A stretch of DNA of 64,000 nucleotides from a virus. Lineage: Duplodnaviria > Caudoviricetes. This document shows positions 1,330 to 18,838 of this stretch, one piece after another. Positions within the stretch are counted from its first letter, which is position 1; every line of letters begins with the position of its first letter. Under the pieces are notes generated by a model. The model saw only the letters and a list, made by a program, of their open reading frames with translations, made no database searches and was not told the origin of the DNA. The DNA lies in IMG/VR virus record IMGVR_UViG_3300022660_000065, positions 1 through 64,000 of that record. One strand, written 5' to 3'. A program made the translations under genes and the position numbers.

Positions 1330-3477
1330 CTAAATGTGCATTACTCGGTCATTAATCTCTTCTGTTTTACCTTTGTTCCAAAAAGTTGAGCCTATATAAC
1401 CGCAAGTTCTGCGGACAACTGTCAGTTTGTTTTTATCAGTACAGCCACATTGCGGGCAATACCAGGTTCCTTCATCATCACACGCCATTTCACCCATGAA
1501 ACCACACTCCCCACATGAATCACCATTTCGAGTATTGATTTCTGCATACTGTATTGTTTCATACATATAATCCACAATTTCTGAAAGAGCCTCAAGATTA
1601 TTATCCATATTAGGTACCTCTATATAAGAAACCGCACCACCCTTGCTTCTCTTTTGGAACTGAGACTCGAACTTAAGTTTTGCGAAAGCATCAATAGGTT
1701 CAAGAACATTTACATGGTAAGAATTTGTAAAATATTCCTTATCAGTAATATCCTTAATCACACCAAAACGCTTTGCTGTTTTCTGAGCGAACTTATAGGT
1801 AAGACTTTCAGAAGGAGTACCATAAAGTGAACAACCATGAAGACCCTTAATCTTTCGCCATTCAATTGTTTTTGCTTCAAGATAATCCATTACACGAAGA
1901 GCAAATTCTTCACCGGCCGGTGCAGTATTAGAGCAACCCTTCATGACTTTTACCATTTCATACACTCCTATGTAACCAAGTGAAATTGAACTATAACCTC
2001 CATCAAGAAGATGGTCAAGATTACCATCCTTCTCAAGACGGGCTATTGAACCGTACATCCAATGAATTGGTGATACTGTTGGCTTTGCTCCACGAATAAG
2101 GCCATCTCGAAGAATCAACGCTTCCTTACAAAGTTCAAGACGTTCATCAAGAATATCCCAAAAACGTGTTTCGTCTCCTTTTGCTGAAAGGGCGATGTCA
2201 ACCAAATTCAAAGTAACAACGCCACGATTAAAACGACCATAGAATTTATATTCACCATTTTTATCTTTCCATGGTGAAAGGAAACTTCTACAACCCATAC
2301 AAGGGAATACGTTGCCATCAAACTGCTCTCTCATGATTTTTGCTGAAATAAAATCAGGGTTCATACGTCTTGCTGCACATTTAACTGCGAGGTCGGTAAG
2401 CCAACGATATTCCGAATCCTGAGGAACATTATTTTCATCAAGAACATAGAGAAGTTTAGGGAAAGCCGGGGTTACTTTAACACCATATTCATTTTCCATG
2501 CCTTCATATCTAAGATTAATCATTTCTTCGATAATCATTGCAGTTTCTTTAATATATTCAGGTTTCTCGTTAAGCCACATAAAAATACTTACGAACGGAG
2601 TCTGTCCATTTGACGAACTAAATGTGTTTTCTTGAAACTGAATTGTCTGCACACCACCTTTTACCTCATCACGAGTTCTTTTCCACGCAATTGTTTCGAT
2701 ATCTTTAGCAGAAAGATTTGCATTAACCAAATTTGATTCTTCTTCAATCTTCTTCTTCCACTTTTCAAAAGAAATTCTCACAAATGGTGCAAGGTGCGAA
2801 ACTGAAAATGTTTGGCCGCCATATTGTCCATTAGCCACCTGAAGTGAAATCTGAGTAGCAACAGTACATGCTGTTTGGAATGACTTAGGTTTACGTATCT
2901 TCTTACCATTAATTACAGTTCCATTCTGCAACATATCATCGAGATTAATAAGCTGACAGTTGAAAATTCCCCTGTGAATCATATAATCAGTATCATGGAC
3001 ATGAATCAACCCTTCATTATGAGCATTAAGAAGATGCGTAGGCATAATATGTCGTTCAGTATAAGAACGGCTTTCTATACCAGCAATAAGGTCCCTCTGT
3101 GTTGAAATAAGTTGTCCATCTTTATTCGAATTTTCATCAAGAGTTGCTGTATTAGTACCATCAATCACCCCAAAAATAGCATCATCAACAATGCTAACTG
3201 ATTCCTGATAAGCCTTTGTCGTCTTATAACGCTCATAAGCACATGCAGTGAGTTCCTGCCCATATTCATTAAGTTTGTTTATTACAAACTTATCAACATC
3301 TTTAGATGCAACAGAATCTTTTTTGCTGAATCGTTCATCACACTCCTCAACAATAACATGAGCGATTCTTGGTCTAAGAAGTCCACTACCGCTTTTCATT
3401 GCGTTAATAATAGACTTATAGATTTTCGAAGAATCATATACCTGCTCCTGTTTGTTTTTCTTTATAAACCTAGCCAT
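1330..3477 (-). CDS. nrdD: anaerobic (class III) ribonucleoside-triphosphate reductase
   Basis: N-terminal ATP cone, HIHD-like HVHDTD, PCMGCRSFL, CxxC...CxxC zinc site, C-terminal glycyl-radical motif RRTCGYIG. Confidence 0.97.
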   Translation of the reverse strand: MARFIKKNKQEQVYDSSKIYKSIINAMKSGSGLLRPRIAHVIVEECDERFSKKDSVASKDVDKFVINKLNEYGQELTACAYERYKTTKAYQESVSIVDDAIFGVIDGTNTATLDENSNKDGQLISTQRDLIAGIESRSYTERHIMPTHLLNAHNEGLIHVHDTDYMIHRGIFNCQLINLDDMLQNGTVINGKKIRKPKSFQTACTVATQISLQVANGQYGGQTFSVSHLAPFVRISFEKWKKKIEEESNLVNANLSAKDIETIAWKRTRDEVKGGVQTIQFQENTFSSSNGQTPFVSIFMWLNEKPEYIKETAMIIEEMINLRYEGMENEYGVKVTPAFPKLLYVLDENNVPQDSEYRWLTDLAVKCAARRMNPDFISAKIMREQFDGNVFPCMGCRSFLSPWKDKNGEYKFYGRFNRGVVTLNLVDIALSAKGDETRFWDILDERLELCKEALILRDGLIRGAKPTVSPIHWMYGSIARLEKDGNLDHLLDGGYSSISLGYIGVYEMVKVMKGCSNTAPAGEEFALRVMDYLEAKTIEWRKIKGLHGCSLYGTPSESLTYKFAQKTAKRFGVIKDITDKEYFTNSYHVNVLEPIDAFAKLKFESQFQKRSKGGAVSYIEVPNMDNNLEALSEIVDYMYETIQYAEINTRNGDSCGECGFMGEMACDDEGTWYCPQCGCTDKNKLTVVRRTCGYIGSTFWNKGKTEEINDRVMHI

Positions 3478-3492
3478 TTTTTATCTCCTATA

Positions 3493-4002
3493 TTATTTTA
3501 AAAATCTTTTATTATCTTCAATATCGTCAGCCCTGACAAACTCTCCATTAGCATGTCTCCAAATTCGTTGGTTAGAGGAACCTCTAAATCTTAATTTTTT
3601 GCCCGCAAGGTGCTCTTTGAACTGTCCGTCAACAACATAGTCACAATTCTGAAGAATCATTTTCTGAGTTTCATCCAATTTACCATCAATCTTAAACCCC
3701 GTCCAAAGCCAAATCGTCTTTTCAGGAAATTTTACCTTAACCTCTTCCAATAGTTCAACAAGGGCTTGGCCCTGAATTAACGGTTCGCCACCCAACACAC
3801 TTAAACCATCACAATGTTCATCCTCCAAATATGAAAAAAGTTCTGATTTTGCATCATCATCAAAAATCTCCCCCGAGTTTTTATCCCACAATTCAGGATT
3901 AAAACATCCAGGGCAATGGAAATCGCAACCCGTAAAGAAAATAGAACATCTAATTCCACATCCGTTGCTTATATCATACCTCTTAATTTTAGAATAATTC
4001 AT
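3493..4002 (-). CDS. nrdG: anaerobic RNR activating radical-SAM enzyme
   Basis: GCDFHCPGCFN (CxxxCxxC), LGGEP, FRGSSNQR; directly upstream of nrdD. Confidence 0.95.
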   Translation of the reverse strand: MNYSKIKRYDISNGCGIRCSIFFTGCDFHCPGCFNPELWDKNSGEIFDDDAKSELFSYLEDEHCDGLSVLGGEPLIQGQALVELLEEVKVKFPEKTIWLWTGFKIDGKLDETQKMILQNCDYVVDGQFKEHLAGKKLRFRGSSNQRIWRHANGEFVRADDIEDNKRFLK

Positions 4003-4171: not shown

Positions 4172-5257
4172 TTATGCAATTTTTTTGTATCTACATTTCT
4201 CGTTAATCTTATCGAGAACCAAATTCTTAGTAAGTTTCAAGGACTTAGATTTTTTCATAGGAGTTTCATACATAAAATCATTCATAATTGTCTCCATAAT
4301 ATTTCTTAAGCCTCTCGCACCGACTTTGAGTTCATAGGCATATTTTGCAATTTCAGTGAGTGCATCTTTAGTGAAAGTAAGTTCGCAATCATCCATTTTA
4401 AAAAGTTTTTGATATTGGGAAACTAATGAATTTTTTGGTTCCGTTAAAATTAGTTTCAAATCATCAATTGTTAATTCATTAACATGAGTTATGACAGGAA
4501 AACGTCCAATGAATTCAGGAATAAGACCAAAAGTCTTAAAGTCCTGCGGTGTGGAGTATTTTATAAGTTCATCGCTCTTAACAACCGTTTTCTCATTAAT
4601 ATTGAATCCTATTTTACTGCCTCCAAGCCTGCTTTTAATAATATCTTCAATCCCCGGAAATGCACCTGAAGCAATAAAAAGAATGTTAGTTGTATCAATA
4701 TACAACAATTCCTGTTCAGGATGCTTTCTTCCTCCTTGTGGATGAACACCTACCATAGAACCTTCCACCATTTTAAGAAGTCCCTGTTCAACTCCTTCTC
4801 CTGACACATCTCGTGTTACCGAGACTCCCGCACCCTTTTTTGCAATTTTATCAATTTCATCAATGAACACAATTCCAATTTCGGCTGCAGGAATGTTGTA
4901 GTCACACTCACGAAGAAGACCTACCAATAACGATTCTATGTCGTCACCAACATATCCGCTTTCTGTTATTGAAGTTGCATTACCTATATAACAAGGAACT
5001 CCAAGCATTTTGGCAATTGTTTTAACAATAAGTGTCTTTCCACAGCCTGTATTTCCTGCAATAAGAATATTTGACTTTTCAAGTTCATCGTAACCATTGT
5101 TGTTGTTAAATATTTTCTTATAATGGTTATAAATTGCTACCGACAAAGCCTTTTTAGCATCATCCTGTCCAATAATATATTTGTCAAGATATTCTTTTAT
5201 CTCATGAGGCTTGTATTTCAAGCCAGTCTTTTCTAACTCTTTTCTAAAATCCGCCAT
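4172..5257 (-). CDS. clpX: ClpX-like AAA+ unfoldase without N-terminal zinc-binding domain
   Basis: IIGQDDAKK, Walker A GNTGCGKT, GYVG pore loop, DEIDKI, GGRKHP, IGF loop, GARGLR; ATG at 5257 preferred over ORF-track 5278 because the promoter lies at 5276-5307. Confidence 0.93.
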   Translation of the reverse strand: MADFRKELEKTGLKYKPHEIKEYLDKYIIGQDDAKKALSVAIYNHYKKIFNNNNGYDELEKSNILIAGNTGCGKTLIVKTIAKMLGVPCYIGNATSITESGYVGDDIESLLVGLLRECDYNIPAAEIGIVFIDEIDKIAKKGAGVSVTRDVSGEGVEQGLLKMVEGSMVGVHPQGGRKHPEQELLYIDTTNILFIASGAFPGIEDIIKSRLGGSKIGFNINEKTVVKSDELIKYSTPQDFKTFGLIPEFIGRFPVITHVNELTIDDLKLILTEPKNSLVSQYQKLFKMDDCELTFTKDALTEIAKYAYELKVGARGLRNIMETIMNDFMYETPMKKSKSLKLTKNLVLDKINEKCRYKKIA

Positions 5258-5275
5258 ATTATTTCTATTCTTAAG

Positions 5276-5307
5276 CAAAGATACTATTTTTTTAGAAACT
5301 TCCCAAA
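5276..5307 (-). promoter_or_regulatory. Bacteroidota housekeeping-sigma promoter
   Basis: TTTG-N20-TATCTTTG on minus strand upstream of clpX. Confidence 0.7.
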
Positions 5308-13416: not shown

Positions 13417-13524
13417 AACTATCTAATCTATATTATTATATAAATATCTTTTAAAATAACAATATATTTCCAGAAATTATTTAACTAATATATCTTTTTA
13501 ATAAGATATTTATTAGGAAACGAA

Positions 13525-13821
13525 ATGGTCATGGAATACTCTGAAACAGGAAACTTTTCCAAAGAACAACGTGCTTTATGTAAAAAAATCAGAGAGTTAA
13601 TCAACGCAGCAAAGAAAAAGGACCTTGTATTCAAAATCAACAAGAACAAACTTTGTGCATATCTTCTATCCGAACTTGAATTGGCCGCCGATGATAAGGC
13701 TGAAGACCTTAAAGATTATGACCACCCAATCAAATCCCTTAACTGTGGAATCATTAACCAAAACATTGGAGAACACGAGTATTATTGGGAAATTGACGAT
13801 ATGGAAAATGAGGAGGCTTAA
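13525..13821 (+). CDS. hypothetical protein
   Basis: 98-aa ATG ORF. Confidence 0.6.
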   Translation: MVMEYSETGNFSKEQRALCKKIRELINAAKKKDLVFKINKNKLCAYLLSELELAADDKAEDLKDYDHPIKSLNCGIINQNIGEHEYYWEIDDMENEEA

Positions 13822-14993
13822 TTTTCCTCCTCATCATCCGGTTTTATATGAACACTAATACTATCTTCTATTCCCGTAGCCCGTATTTCAAGTTTATCAT
13901 CGAAATCAACCGTAAAGATGAATTCTGATATTGGTTCATCCATATCTAATATCTTTTGAGTTATCCTGTCGAGAATTTCTGTTTCTATCGCTCTTGCAAT
14001 AGGACGTGCCCCATATTCCCTATCGGGTTCAATAATTTTCATCAGATAATCAACAACGCAATCATAATATGTGAACTTAAGCCCCCTTCGTGATAATGTG
14101 TTTTTTACTTCAGTAAGGCGATTATTAATTATCTGTCGTAAGTTATCATCATTTAATGGGTTGAAATATATAATATCATTAAAACGATTTAAGAACTCAG
14201 GAGGGAATTTCTTCTTCAATTCTTTAGTAAGAATGTTTCGCTGATTTTTTTCTTCATCCTCATTAAAGCCAATACCCTTCCCAAGACTTGAAGCAGTTTT
14301 GGCACCCACATTAGATGTGGCAATGATTATAACATTCTTAAAATCAATTTTCATGCCAGTATTATCAGTAAGAAACCCTTCGTCAAGTACTTGCAAGAAT
14401 AAATTATATATTTCAGTATCAGCCTTTTCAATTTCATCAAGAAGAAGCACACAATGTTTCTTGTTTTTAATTGCCTCTGTTAAAAGACCACCCTTCTCAT
14501 AGCCGATATATCCCGGATTTGAACCAATAAGTTTGCCAACAGCAGTTTTATCTGTGTACTCAGACAAATCAAAACGAACAATTTTATTTTCATCGCCGAA
14601 TAATTGTTCGGCTAACTTCTTGCCTATAAACGTATTATGACTCAAAATTCCATTACTATAATATCTATGATTACTATTTTCAGATAAAACCAAATCATAC
14701 ATATTATTATCCACATTTAAATTGTTTACAATAACAATAGTTTCAACCCCATCAATAGTCATAATTTTATCGCCTATCTCAAAATTTTTGGCGAATTTTT
14801 CATTCATGTTATTATCAAACAATATATGATTATCAGCACACCATAGCTCTTTATTGCCATTTGTTTTAATATAATACGTTAGATATGGGACTGTTTTAGT
14901 TATATTTTTAATATCAACCCATCCTTCATCTGTTTCAATTTCATAATCTTCAACATCCACTATATCAATAAATTTACGTTCTATTTTTTCCAT
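13818..14993 (-). CDS. IntC (120 aa) fused to C-terminal part of ClpC-type ATPase NBD2
   Basis: MEKIERK...LWCADNH...MYDLVL...GILSHN|TFIGK, then FDLSEY, GYIGY, LLLDEIEKA, IGF, PEFLNRF, YGARP. Confidence 0.9.
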   Translation of the reverse strand: MEKIERKFIDIVDVEDYEIETDEGWVDIKNITKTVPYLTYYIKTNGNKELWCADNHILFDNNMNEKFAKNFEIGDKIMTIDGVETIVIVNNLNVDNNMYDLVLSENSNHRYYSNGILSHNTFIGKKLAEQLFGDENKIVRFDLSEYTDKTAVGKLIGSNPGYIGYEKGGLLTEAIKNKKHCVLLLDEIEKADTEIYNLFLQVLDEGFLTDNTGMKIDFKNVIIIATSNVGAKTASSLGKGIGFNEDEEKNQRNILTKELKKKFPPEFLNRFNDIIYFNPLNDDNLRQIINNRLTEVKNTLSRRGLKFTYYDCVVDYLMKIIEPDREYGARPIARAIETEILDRITQKILDMDEPISEFIFTVDFDDKLEIRATGIEDSISVHIKPDDEEEN

Positions 14994-16117
14994 GATAAGA
15001 ATTCCAAACATTCATTTATTACATTATTTTCATTTTCCCTAAAATCACTTTCCCATACAGTCAAGACATTAAAACCGTTAAGTTCTGCAATGTTTTTTTT
15101 ATAAGCATCATATTCCCACATTTCTTTTGATGTTTTTTGGGGTTGGAATGGATTAGGATAGTCTGTTGCTTTAAATAATTTTGGGTTTCCATGATATATA
15201 TCACCATTGAATTCTATTATTTTACGTTGATTTAAATCTGTAAAATCAAAAATGTGATTAGAATCATTATGCCTAATATTATATTCACGATTTTTAGAAC
15301 CATAAAATATATAATCACGTAAATCTTCATCACAATATTTTATTAATGTGTCGAATAAATTTTGTGATACCATTGAGTAACCAACATGTAAATTATTATT
15401 CTCATGTAATTTTCTTTGCCATTTTTTTTGCCTCTTTTCCCATATTTCCACCCCTCTTTCTATACCATATTTTTCTACACAAATATCTTTTGAAAATAGA
15501 CGTTGTTTAGAACTAATATTTTTTATTGCTTCTTCTTCAGAAAAGCCCTGTTTTATCCAATATTCCTTGCAACGCCATGACCGTTCTCTTATTTTTTGAA
15601 TATCACAATTAGCTATTTTAGAGTTTTTTTTCTGTATTTCACTAATATTTTTTATCGCTTCTTTTTCAGAAAAACCCCGTTTTATCCAATATTCTTTACA
15701 TAAAATACTTTTTTCTTTAAAAAATTTATTAGCATCTTCCTTACCAAGTTTATCTATTATATCTTTTTTTGTAAATTTCACTCTTTGTTTACATTTTAGA
15801 GACCTATTACGTTGTTCTATACTGCTAAAATATCTTGCTTCTTCTTCAGAAAAGCCCTGTTTTATCCAATATTCTTTATAATTTTTATGTGTTTCTTTCC
15901 ATTTATTTTCACTTTTTTCAGCCTCTTCTTTACCGAATAAACTGTGTATTCTAACCCATTTATTTGGTGGATTATGTCCAATACAATTAATATTTTCACA
16001 TGTTTCTACGATTTTAGACCCCACACGATTTACATGATAGGATATTAATGACCCACATAATTGGCATATTGGCTGTGTATCTGATATCTTCTTATTACTA
16101 TAAAAAAAACCTGCCAT
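14981..16117 (-). CDS. free-standing Vsr-like homing endonuclease
   Basis: N-terminal Cys pairs, three KEYWIKxGFSExEA repeats, C-terminal IIEFNGDIYHG...LTVWESD. Confidence 0.8.
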   Translation of the reverse strand: MAGFFYSNKKISDTQPICQLCGSLISYHVNRVGSKIVETCENINCIGHNPPNKWVRIHSLFGKEEAEKSENKWKETHKNYKEYWIKQGFSEEEARYFSSIEQRNRSLKCKQRVKFTKKDIIDKLGKEDANKFFKEKSILCKEYWIKRGFSEKEAIKNISEIQKKNSKIANCDIQKIRERSWRCKEYWIKQGFSEEEAIKNISSKQRLFSKDICVEKYGIERGVEIWEKRQKKWQRKLHENNNLHVGYSMVSQNLFDTLIKYCDEDLRDYIFYGSKNREYNIRHNDSNHIFDFTDLNQRKIIEFNGDIYHGNPKLFKATDYPNPFQPQKTSKEMWEYDAYKKNIAELNGFNVLTVWESDFRENENNVINECLEFLSWKK

Positions 16118-16175
16118 AAAAAATCTTATTTTAATATAAATATTTTCTACATTTGGAAAAACCGGGCATTTTTAA

Positions 16176-18059
16176 TTATTTAATTTTTTTATAAAATTCT
16201 TCAATTGTAAGTGTTTCTATATCAAGCGTTTTTTTATTCCTGACTTTAATTAATGAATTACCTAAAATGCATTTACCAACTCCCGTTTTTCCAATAACAA
16301 AGAAACTTCCATAAGTTGCGCTGTTAGTGAAACCAACACGATTTCTTCTAATAGCATTGCAAATTTTGTCAATTGCTTCATCTTGGCCAATAACATATTC
16401 TTTCAATTTTTTATCAAGATTTGAAAGTGATTTCTTATCATTGGTATTAAGTTGAGCAAGAGGAATCTGCACAGACCTCGAAAATACTTCAAGGACATCA
16501 TTTCTTGTAATTAATATCGGGTTTGTTTTAATTGCTTTTTTATGCTCCGCTTCAATTTCAATAATTTTTACCGTAAGTTCCTTTGATTTTTTTTCTTTGG
16601 CTTCAGCCTCATCAAATTTATCGTTTTTCTTTAATTTTTCAACTTCTTTATCAATTTCATTTCTCTCAGAATAAAGTTCATCAAGGTCATCTGACCTGAA
16701 AAAATCTATATGGAACTGTGCGCCAACCTCGTCGAGTATATCAATTGCTGAATCAGGAAGATTTCTTTCGGTAAGATATTTGTCTGAAAGTTCGCAACAT
16801 GCAACAATTGCATCATCAGTATATTTTACTGAATGATATTTTTCATATTCAGGTTTTAAACCTTTTAGTATTTTAATTGTCTCATTTACTGATGGCGGGT
16901 CAATATTCACTTTTTGAAAACGACGGCTCATTGTAGGATTTGAATCTATGGTCGTGCGGTATCCCTTAAAATCTGTCGTGGCAATTATCTGAACGTCACC
17001 ATTTTCCAACAAAGAACCCCACACATTACCGGAATCTTTTTCCATTGTACTTTTTTCAGCAAATACAGAGGACACATCGTCAATGAAGAGAATACAATCC
17101 TTAGTTTTCTTTAATTCAGCAATAAGATTATTAAGACGTTCTTCAAACATCCCCCTCCATTGTGTTCCCGCCACAAGACTTGTTGGATTCAACATAAGGA
17201 TTCGTTTATTTCTAAGTTGTGCGGGCACTTTATAATCATTTATCATATGAGCCAAACCATGCACCAATGATGTTTTTCCAACACCGGCCCCGCCAACAAT
17301 TATTACATTGTTTTTCTTTCTTCGACAAAGAATACGAATCATTTCATCAAGGTCATTTTCTCTACCAATGATGTTATCAATCTTCTTTTTTCTTGCAAGT
17401 TCAGTTATATCACTACAATAACCATCCAAAATAGAATTTACTGTTTTTTTACTGTTTTTAACAGTATTACCAGACAATAAATCAGAAAGTTCATTAAACG
17501 AACTGACCCCAATCACTTCAACTCTTCGTGTCGGTGTATAACTTGTTGTTGGAGCCATTTCTTCAACAGATTCATTTTCGTCATTATTAGCCTCATTTTT
17601 TATCATTTCAACTTTTTTCATGACAATTTTGTAATCAACGCCCGCACGATTAAAAACCTTTTTCACTGAATTATTTGGAATATGTTCACCCAGGAGAGCA
17701 AGAAGAACATGAATACTATTCATGGTTTTATCACCCAACCCTTCCATCTCTTTTTCAGCATATCCTAAAATATCTTCAGCATTCTTATCCAATCTTATTT
17801 CCCTGTTAGGGTTGACAGCGGACAACGCTTTTTTATTAAGGAGTTCAAAATATGTATCATGAATTGTATTTAATGCAAGCGATGTTAAATAATTGGTAAG
17901 GATTCCGTATGCATAACAGTCTTTTTTCTGTAAAAAAGCAAGCACAAAATATTCTACCGATATAATCGGTGAAGGTAGTTCCCTACTCAATGAGTTCTCA
18001 ATAAATCCCAACAATTTCTTTAACTCATTAGAGAATTTCTCATTTTCCATGTACTTCAT
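16176..18059 (-). CDS. N-terminal part of ClpC-type ATPase fused to IntN (31 aa)
   Basis: Clp N domain, IIGRE, GGAGVGKT, AGTQWRGMFEERL, RRFQK, LPDSAIDILDE, UVR-like coiled coil, VIGQDEA, second Walker A GKTGVGK|CILGNS...KKIK*. Confidence 0.92.
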   Translation of the reverse strand: MKYMENEKFSNELKKLLGFIENSLSRELPSPIISVEYFVLAFLQKKDCYAYGILTNYLTSLALNTIHDTYFELLNKKALSAVNPNREIRLDKNAEDILGYAEKEMEGLGDKTMNSIHVLLALLGEHIPNNSVKKVFNRAGVDYKIVMKKVEMIKNEANNDENESVEEMAPTTSYTPTRRVEVIGVSSFNELSDLLSGNTVKNSKKTVNSILDGYCSDITELARKKKIDNIIGRENDLDEMIRILCRRKKNNVIIVGGAGVGKTSLVHGLAHMINDYKVPAQLRNKRILMLNPTSLVAGTQWRGMFEERLNNLIAELKKTKDCILFIDDVSSVFAEKSTMEKDSGNVWGSLLENGDVQIIATTDFKGYRTTIDSNPTMSRRFQKVNIDPPSVNETIKILKGLKPEYEKYHSVKYTDDAIVACCELSDKYLTERNLPDSAIDILDEVGAQFHIDFFRSDDLDELYSERNEIDKEVEKLKKNDKFDEAEAKEKKSKELTVKIIEIEAEHKKAIKTNPILITRNDVLEVFSRSVQIPLAQLNTNDKKSLSNLDKKLKEYVIGQDEAIDKICNAIRRNRVGFTNSATYGSFFVIGKTGVGKCILGNSLIKVRNKKTLDIETLTIEEFYKKIK

Positions 18060-18118
18060 TATAAAAACTTGTTTTTCTGAAATAATTTAACTATTTTTAC
18101 AACAAAAATCAATAGCAT

Positions 18119-18838
18119 ATGATATTAAAATCGGTTTATAATGAAAATACTTTAACTGAAAAAGTTTGGTATGATTCTTCATCCGTTGTATATTCGGAAT
18201 TCATCGAACATGAGAACGATAATAATGGTGAATTGTTCGTTACATTTAAAAATGGGGGAACTTATCACTACAAAAATGTGGATATGGTTCGAGATTATGT
18301 AATGTTCAAAAACGGGGGTCTTGATGGGTCACAAGGTAAGGCTTTGAATCAGCACATTAAATCTAAGTATGAATTTGAAAAACTTGAGAATAAGGATGTA
18401 CAGCTTCTTCTTGAAGAAATGAATAATACTATGACTGATATAGAAGCCAAATATAATACAATTTTTATTTCAGGGCATAGAAATATAACTGAAGAAGAAT
18501 TCAATAAAAATTACTGTGAACGTATCCGTGGGGAACTAATTGCCAATCCCGAACTTATGTTCGTCATCGGTGATTATCATGGGGTTGATATAATGGCACA
18601 GAATTTCCTTTTAGACCAACTTGAGATTAACCCTGAAAAAGTCACTGTTTACCACATGTGGGATAAACCAAGAAATGCAAATCCTAAGGTAATTAATTTC
18701 AAAGGTGGATTTACAAGTGATAGTGAACGCGATGAGGCAATGACAAAAGCATCATACCGAGATATTGCTTTTGTTAGAGATAATAAAGTAATGTCAGGCA
18801 CGGCAGAGAATATCCTACGTCGTTTTCTTATTGACTAA
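18119..18838 (+). CDS. KTSC-like plus YspA/SLOG-like fusion protein
   Basis: DSSSV...ELFVTFKNGGTYHY (KTSC-like); IFISGHR...VIGDYHGVDIMA (SLOG-like). Confidence 0.6.
   Translation: MILKSVYNENTLTEKVWYDSSSVVYSEFIEHENDNNGELFVTFKNGGTYHYKNVDMVRDYVMFKNGGLDGSQGKALNQHIKSKYEFEKLENKDVQLLLEEMNNTMTDIEAKYNTIFISGHRNITEEEFNKNYCERIRGELIANPELMFVIGDYHGVDIMAQNFLLDQLEINPEKVTVYHMWDKPRNANPKVINFKGGFTSDSERDEAMTKASYRDIAFVRDNKVMSGTAENILRRFLID

Follow-up and report, generated by a model that had tools for sequence, protein, structure and literature searches.

How can a phage make a working two-ring unfoldase from a gene that is cut in the middle of its second ATP-binding loop? The question is raised by a locus in a 64,000-nucleotide stretch of viral DNA (positions 1 to 64,000 of IMG/VR record IMGVR_UViG_3300022660_000065; Duplodnaviria, Caudoviricetes), henceforth the window. 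There, a ClpC-like ATPase is encoded in two halves that lie on either side of an endonuclease gene. Comparison with related sequences confirms the locus as a genuine, well-supported fractured gene with a split intein: a short N-terminal intein piece (IntN) predicted at the end of one half and a long C-terminal piece (IntC) at the start of the other. The parts are listed here in gene order (aa, amino acids; nt, nucleotides; D1 and D2, the first and second AAA+ modules).

16176-18059, minus strand: open reading frame (ORF) of the N-half, 627 aa, ending in GKTGVGK, a 31-aa tail (CILGNS...KKIK) and TAA
16272-18059, minus strand: N-extein, 596 aa, with the Clp N-domain, the D1 AAA+ module and lid, a short middle coil and D2 as far as the Walker A Lys (Pfam Clp_N, AAA, AAA_lid_9)
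16179-16271, minus strand: IntN, 31 aa, Cys1 first (16269-16271), net charge +3; the TAA stop follows at 16176-16178
16118-16175, minus strand: spacer of 58 nt that separates the stop of the N-half from the nuclease start
14981-16117, minus strand: free-standing nuclease gene, 378 aa, predicted to be Vsr-like (PD-(D/E)xK-type); phrog_22677
13818-15011 (397 aa, first ATG) or 13818-14993 (391 aa), minus strand: C-half ORF; public gene calls start at the ATG at 14993
14634-14993, minus strand: IntC, 120 aa (126 aa from the ATG at 15011), with block B WCADNH, block F MYDL and block G ILSHN; net charge -11
13818-14633, minus strand: C-extein, 271 aa plus stop, Thr+1 first, with the D2 Walker B LLLDEIEKA, a GIGF loop and the D2-small domain (Pfam AAA_2 1.1e-47, ClpB_D2-small 5.8e-14)

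All three ORFs point the same way and are intact, with neither frameshift nor internal stop; the nuclease stop and the C-half start overlap by 13 nt. TFIGKKLAEQLF directly follows ILSHN at the start of the C-extein (TFIGKK), and its Thr+1 completes the D2 Walker A motif, GKTGVGK-T. An earlier note on this DNA, made from its letters alone, had drawn the same anatomy: an N-half that stops at the second Walker A with an IntN of 31 aa at 16271-16179, an IntC of 120 aa at 14993-14634 that carries CADNH, MYDL and SHN and runs into TFIGK, an endonuclease gene between the halves, and Thr at +1. Its coordinates prove exact to the base, its motifs are where it had put them, and the catalytic Cys1 and Thr+1 stand at the junctions.

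The halves are neighbouring parts of a single protein family, as their coverage of two models shows, and the agreement goes well beyond chance. In the phage Clp profile phrog_4871 ('ATP-dependent protease') the N-half matches positions 19-514 and the C-half 510-737; in the ClpA model TIGR02639 they match 23-509 and 503-720. Alignments of relatives with the C-half (in the 397-aa numbering) begin only at residue 126/127. The predicted spliced product, 596 + 271 = 867 aa, matches the size of uninterrupted relatives (~875 aa). A ClpC-like host, in keeping with the earlier note, is supported by the best solved relative of the C-extein, Staphylococcus aureus ClpC (6em8, E 4.3e-56). The architecture is as follows: Clp_N, AAA, AAA_lid_9, AAA_2 and D2-small, plus a putative ClpP-docking GIGF loop that aligns with the AGF loop of S. 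aureus ClpC and in which GF is invariant among relatives. The D2 motifs are intact (Walker B DE, GYIGY pore loop, GARP). The protein stays below the equivalog cut-offs for ClpA and ClpB (TIGR02639, TIGR03346), the halves scoring 367 and 242 bits against a ClpA cut-off of 993; an intact orthologue (L085) also falls below, with 597 against 993 (ClpA) and 616 against 1232 (ClpB). 'ClpC-like' is therefore a label of architecture that establishes no family membership, and by these profile scores the host protein is a divergent phage family (phrog_4871), not a ClpA/ClpB equivalog. ClpP is encoded (E 3.1e-57) in G001, at 280 kb the nearest of the large relative genomes; no ClpP gene was found within the 88-kb fragment to which the window belongs. 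One overlap between a relative and the intein was rejected: the C-half alignment of Vibrio phage P018-4 begins 13 residues inside IntC, and since the gene of that phage is one uninterrupted coding sequence of 724 aa, the overlap is taken as chance.

The D1 module has its own peculiarity. Its Walker B motif (window 17055-17090, minus strand; N-half residues 324-335) reads ILFIDD in place of the usual IDE. The corresponding residues are IDN in L082-L085, the closest homologues, IDD in L009 and IDELH in more distant relatives. D1 may thus be able to bind ATP without hydrolysing it, in which case the fractured D2 would be the sole motor.

The extra 151 residues at the junction have the sequence features of a class 1 intein. 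All the catalytic positions checked are present: Cys1 as the nucleophile at position 1, the block B His, the block F Asp, and in block G the penultimate His and terminal Asn, followed by Thr+1; H56, D100, H119, N120 and T121 are invariant in the alignment A1. Searched by itself against 1.84 billion representatives, IntC retrieves 890 clusters (E<=1e-3), and the matches mostly begin within the first few residues of their proteins; since the domain is N-terminal in most of these clusters, they are IntC-extein fusions, and the atypically split inteins to which they belong form a large family. In the Protein Data Bank (PDB; phmmer), the best match of IntC is the atypically split VidaL (6vgv, 8.6e-6), followed by the consensus atypical intein CatC (6dsl, 0.002) and then by gp41-1 (0.02). 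IntC and CatC align from residue 14 of each and therefore share the same split register. Contiguous members of the family occur in terminases and helicase-like proteins, and their first ~30 residues resemble the 31-aa tail of the N-half. A profile was made from residues 1-34 of 18 such contiguous inteins, all with non-Clp (terminase- or helicase-like) hosts. Of the window's 1,661 six-frame ORFs it matches one significantly, and that match falls on the final 31 residues of the N-half (E 1.2e-9; the runner-up has 1.2). The division into 31 and 120 aa on separate ORFs is that of a naturally atypically split intein, and a free-standing endonuclease gene between same-strand halves is the layout that defines the fractured genes of Dassa et al. 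(2009), found likewise at L084, L009 and other loci. The two pieces are complementary in charge, with a basic IntN (+3) and an acidic IntC (-11), as are 12 of 13 related pairs examined.

The same arrangement, with the same junctions, recurs in related phages. Scanning IMG/VR with IntC and the C-extein yields the same fractured layout on ~30 contigs, and the protein clusters that run across the IntC/ClpC junction number at least 120 (57-73% identity). The motifs at the junctions, GK↓C (end of the N-half; the arrow marks the splice junction) and SHN↓T (end of IntC), are found again in ~20 diverged loci: the N-half tails in 20 related loci read G.TGVGK↓C...RNK..., run for 28-39 aa and stop, and the IntC pieces of related fractured loci all end in YYTNGILSHN↓T. 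One relative (L084, on a contig of 392,823 bp) has the identical three-gene layout with a full-length nuclease; in four others the nuclease gene is truncated (L021, L022, L023 and L029), and in L012 the gene is split without a nuclease gene. Also informative is L035, in which a single continuous ORF carries a contiguous mini-intein of 173 aa at the same site. IntN aligns with residues 1-31 of this intein and IntC from about residue 50. An AlphaFold2 model of it has a mean predicted local distance difference test (pLDDT) score of 88, its only low-confidence internal stretch being a linker that coincides with the split position of the gene studied here. A fold search with the model returns VidaL at the top (E 8.5e-9, template modelling (TM) score 0.82 on target), and the other listed matches are inteins or related BIL (Hint) domains. 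A HINT fold is thus indicated for the family at this site through a contiguous homologue.

Uninterrupted alleles are the commoner state. The P-loop is intact in 78 of the 80 best C-extein homologues (a second scan, with the C-extein only), and the closest of all (L082, L083 and L085, 57-62% identity) are single ORFs of ~875 aa that read GKTG(V/T)GK-TL(I/L)AKKLAKE where the gene studied here is cut. The distribution of the cassette among close relatives is patchy, and its base composition is foreign: the GC content of the exteins is 0.337 and 0.341 against 0.204 for IntN, 0.274 for the nuclease and 0.253 for IntC, so that the cassette lies 6-14 points below them. Between L015 and L025 the segment from IntN through the nuclease is 85-100% identical and the flanking Clp sequence 50-80%; over IntN in this pair, dN = dS = 0. 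All this suggests a mobile cassette. Usable values of dS were obtained in two locus pairs only. Against the closest fractured relative, L084, the intein pieces have omega values of 0.17-0.25.

These facts suggest the following mechanism. A class 1 mini-intein cassette would have lodged between the Lys and Thr that are invariant in the D2 Walker A and would itself have been broken by the gene for a free-standing Vsr-like homing endonuclease, so that three proteins would now be made: the N-extein (596 aa) with its basic IntN, the endonuclease, and the acidic IntC with its C-extein (271 aa). IntN would dock on IntC, completing the HINT fold; Cys1 would form a thioester, the N-extein would be transferred to Thr+1, and the terminal Asn would cyclise. 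The product would have an intact GKTGVGKT loop, a D2 capable of ATP hydrolysis and the ClpP-docking GIGF loop. By cutting alleles that lack the intein in relatives during co-infection, the endonuclease would spread the cassette. That trans-splicing restores an 867-aa ClpC-like unfoldase, of class I among the Clp/Hsp100 proteins, is, on the sequence evidence, very probable. The earlier note had made assembly of the hexamer depend on splicing; it would be more precise to say that D2 ATPase activity, together with the covalent link to the part that would dock on ClpP, would depend on it.

Several points weigh against this interpretation. Block B lacks its usual Thr, having Ala in its place (CADNH), a feature common to the whole family, VidaL (CAFNH) included. 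Thr is the weakest of the three +1 nucleophiles; it, too, is common to the whole intein family. The modelled fold is that of the L035 homologue rather than that of the locus's own IntN and IntC as a pair. Finally, dS against L084 is saturated (1-2), so that purifying selection on the intein pieces is supported only loosely by the omega values given above.

The first two of these points are also what could be said for a pair of intein pieces that no longer splices, leaving either a two-chain ATPase held together non-covalently by the contact of IntN with IntC, or a D2 ring that does not function. A ring could still be formed by D1 alone, and the phage has a separate ClpX-like unfoldase (4172-5278). 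Such an unspliced D2 would have to carry 151 foreign residues inside its P-loop, and the catalytic positions checked are kept here, and the junction motifs in ~20 loci that have diverged to 45-60% identity. The same residue pattern is present in VidaL, which splices with a half-time of ~1 min (PMC13014065). A non-splicing pair is improbable because the junction residues are conserved throughout a family to which this fast-splicing intein belongs. Loss of the gene altogether, with ClpC killed by the insertion of the nuclease and no longer used, would fit the retention of an uninterrupted gene by most relatives, and the protein was already atypical, the D1 Walker B Glu being replaced throughout the clade (IDD here, IDN in L082-L085). 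A decaying pseudogene would not be expected to consist of three intact ORFs, to retain its D2 motifs, to recur as the same protein on 21 contigs and to keep its layout across many diverged phages; we consider this explanation very improbable.

The halves might instead be joined at the level of RNA, by a group I or group II intron that bears the nuclease ORF. Vsr-like homing endonucleases are known in group I introns (recA; PMC2677866), and I-Bth0305I is among the fold matches of the nuclease. Yet a permissive Rfam scan of 13500-18400 on both strands gives no match, the spacer folds into no significant hairpin or other structure (z -0.36), and on either side the nuclease gene borders on sequence that codes for intein in frame and shows significant homology as protein. 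The allele in L035, moreover, reads through as a contiguous protein intein. RNA-level removal is scarcely credible on these grounds, and protein trans-splicing is the reading carried forward here.

The nuclease is assigned to its family mainly by fold and weakly by sequence. The protein matches phrog_22677 at 1.8e-18; Pfam DUF559 stays under its cut-off (7.5e-4, 19.8 bits against 20.6). A family profile searched against the PDB finds only the three Escherichia coli Vsr entries, at E ~0.7, which is not significant alone, with the catalytic motifs in register. The C-terminal 164 residues give an AlphaFold2 model of pLDDT 89.7, for which Foldseek places Vsr 1cw0 first (E 2.4e-3, probability 1.0), then 1vsr, with I-Bth0305I (3r3p) at rank 15 and a TM score of 0.63 on target; a Vsr-like identity is thus the one that the modelled fold favours, in agreement with the Vsr-like family that Dassa et al. 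described for fractured genes. The D...E..GD..H...VW-E motifs align with the catalytic region of Vsr, and the family-invariant residues D291, E302 and H309 are all present. The N-terminal two-thirds of the protein, with a Cys-rich segment and three EYWIKxGFSxxEA repeats, has no known counterpart; this part presumably binds DNA. I-Bth0305I resides in an intron, whereas the nuclease here lies within an intein. Most of the fractured loci, those in different host genes among them, have a homologue of the nuclease at this place.

Within the spacer, ATATTTATA lies at 16135-16143, 18 nt upstream of the ATG of the nuclease. Where 3.1 copies of this exact 9-mer are expected there are 7, two others of which stand a short way upstream of genes on the minus strand; in L084 the equivalent position has TATTTATA. 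ATATTTATA may be a promoter-like element; this stays a weak lead because a relaxed 10-mer form of the motif is not enriched.

In related phages the Clp gene is also interrupted at D1. There, an atypically split intein that belongs to this family, often with a Vsr-like nuclease gene of its own, breaks the D1 Walker A (GEPGVGK↓C ... SHN↓T(A/S)IVEGLA). Loci with the D1 split are L024 (2170-9116), L028, L011 and L061, as well as L031-L034, which are split at D1 only. In L024, L028 and L011 both D1 and D2 are cut, and the Clp gene is therefore in three pieces; between the co-resident D1 and D2 inteins, the IntN pieces are 36-47% and the IntC pieces 52-67% identical, and such pairs could be natural orthogonal ones. 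Other inteins have found the same gene. L007 (3599-6645) has a different split intein at D1, two P-loop residues earlier and with Cys+1 (GEPG↓C ... VVSHN↓CGKT), and in L003-L005 (L003, 3297-6206) D1 carries an in-frame insertion of ~360 aa, ending THN↓T, that is probably a full-length contiguous intein. In one database protein (P0005), a ClpC C-half with the same N-terminal IntC has a second, contiguous intein further in (KLHG↓CFTPE...); in another (P0004), the same IntC family precedes a ClpX-like C-extein (SHN↓TLLVKSIAKMLDVP...), again with a further intein. These alleles invite a bolder reading: that, among the giant phages of this clade, the Clp gene is a recurrent homing hot spot at one or both Walker A loops and that, D1 having lost its Walker B Glu, trans-splicing at D2 would serve as the single obligatory activation step of a ClpC-ClpP protease, possibly a timer or a concentration gate, rather than being the trace of a neutral parasite. 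We regard this as unlikely. Were it true, the three-piece genes would need two co-resident, mutually orthogonal pairs of pieces that are only 36-67% identical.

How new is the element? In kind it is known. The fractured genes described by Dassa et al. (2009) likewise have co-oriented pieces of a host gene that carry split-intein halves, a Vsr-like nuclease gene in between and overlapping reading frames, and they come mainly from phages (PMC2677866); the earlier note's appeal to that precedent was apt. Their hosts are gp41 helicase, IMPDH, DNA polymerase, NrdA/NrdJ, ligase and terminase, in contrast to Clp here, and neither 'Clp' nor 'chaperone' occurs in that paper (PMC2677866). The insertion point between the Walker A Lys and Thr is a 'classic' P-loop intein site (PMC5050341), hit in this instance in a two-ring AAA+ unfoldase. 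By its sequence the intein sides with the atypically split TerL-type inteins (GOS-TerL, AceL-TerL, the consensus Cat and VidaL), the matches to VidaL and CatC being those reported above: short IntN, long IntC, Cys1, a C-A/S-x-N-H block B and a P-loop GK↓T/S site are shared, while the host is a terminase there and the D2 P-loop of a Clp/Hsp100 protein here, and identity to the solved members is low. The best-known inteins of the fractured-gene group (gp41-1, NrdJ-1, IMPDH-1) are reportedly split at the canonical position, with an IntN of ~90-105 aa against 31 aa here; the IntN of VidaL has 16 aa. The earlier note had called so short an IntN rare. The atypical split stands; the unusual length does not, since natural atypical IntN pieces range from 15 to 37 aa (PMC13014065), and the intein, with its 31 aa, is therefore an ordinary member of the TerL/Cat/VidaL-type family.

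In many cultured phages, inteins of this family are annotated in the terminase, and TerL inteins such as those of Klebsiella phage Magnus, Vibrio phage VAP7 and Salicola phage SCTP-2 are 37-51% identical to IntC; that of Magnus is annotated within one terminase precursor, and none of the listed cultured-phage copies is in a Clp gene. The earlier note knew of no Clp/Hsp100 split intein. In the literature searched, likewise, none is named in ClpA, ClpB, ClpC or ClpX, split or otherwise, and only a chloroplast ClpP intein is mentioned, supplementary lists of atypical split inteins lying outside its coverage. ClpC is thus a new host, for which no published report was found, for an element of known kind. 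In metagenomes the layout is common, not singular, as the cluster and contig counts given above attest, and it is unannotated in sequence databases. The only public name given to proteins that span the IntC/ClpC junction is 'AAA family ATPase', in an NCBI metagenome-assembled genome labelled Methanosphaera sp., an archaeon. That protein (P0183) is an IntC-ClpC C-half of 383 aa, and its source is probably a phage contig binned into the archaeal assembly.

The finding adds a motor of protein quality control to the genes that phages carry in pieces, hitherto mostly those for replication, nucleotide-metabolism and packaging enzymes. It may also be of use in protein engineering: natural inteins with a short IntN are few and sought after, and the ClpC branch offers many diverged pairs with IntN pieces of 28-39 aa and Thr+1. 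The three-piece relatives add natural co-resident intein pairs, perhaps orthogonal.

The window comes from an IMG/VR record of 88,186 bp, whose estimated completeness is 25%. It represents part of the genome of a large phage and has genes for a major head protein, a portal protein, NrdD and a helicase. The longest of the 21 contigs that encode the C-half protein has 349,824 bp, and the best explanation is that the fractured Clp gene belongs to a phage of roughly 350 kb; a nucleotide search against cultured phages gave no match. The genome has no further copy of the intein. A 17-aa IntN-like match at genome positions 64796-64846 was rejected, being the ordinary C-terminus of another ORF. Outside the window, a free-standing ORF of 172 aa without flanking intein pieces (G000:C1:82800-83315, plus strand) encodes a nuclease domain related to that of the fractured-gene nuclease (tblastn E 1.4e-5). 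The ClpX-like unfoldase mentioned above (window 4172-5278, minus strand; 368 aa) has a single ring, with AAA_2 and ClpB_D2-small, and lies ~9 kb from the fractured ClpC gene. Near the start of the window, on the minus strand, are an NrdD-like anaerobic ribonucleotide reductase (1330-3477) and its radical-SAM activase (Fer4_12; 3493-4002), a pair that points to an anaerobic host.

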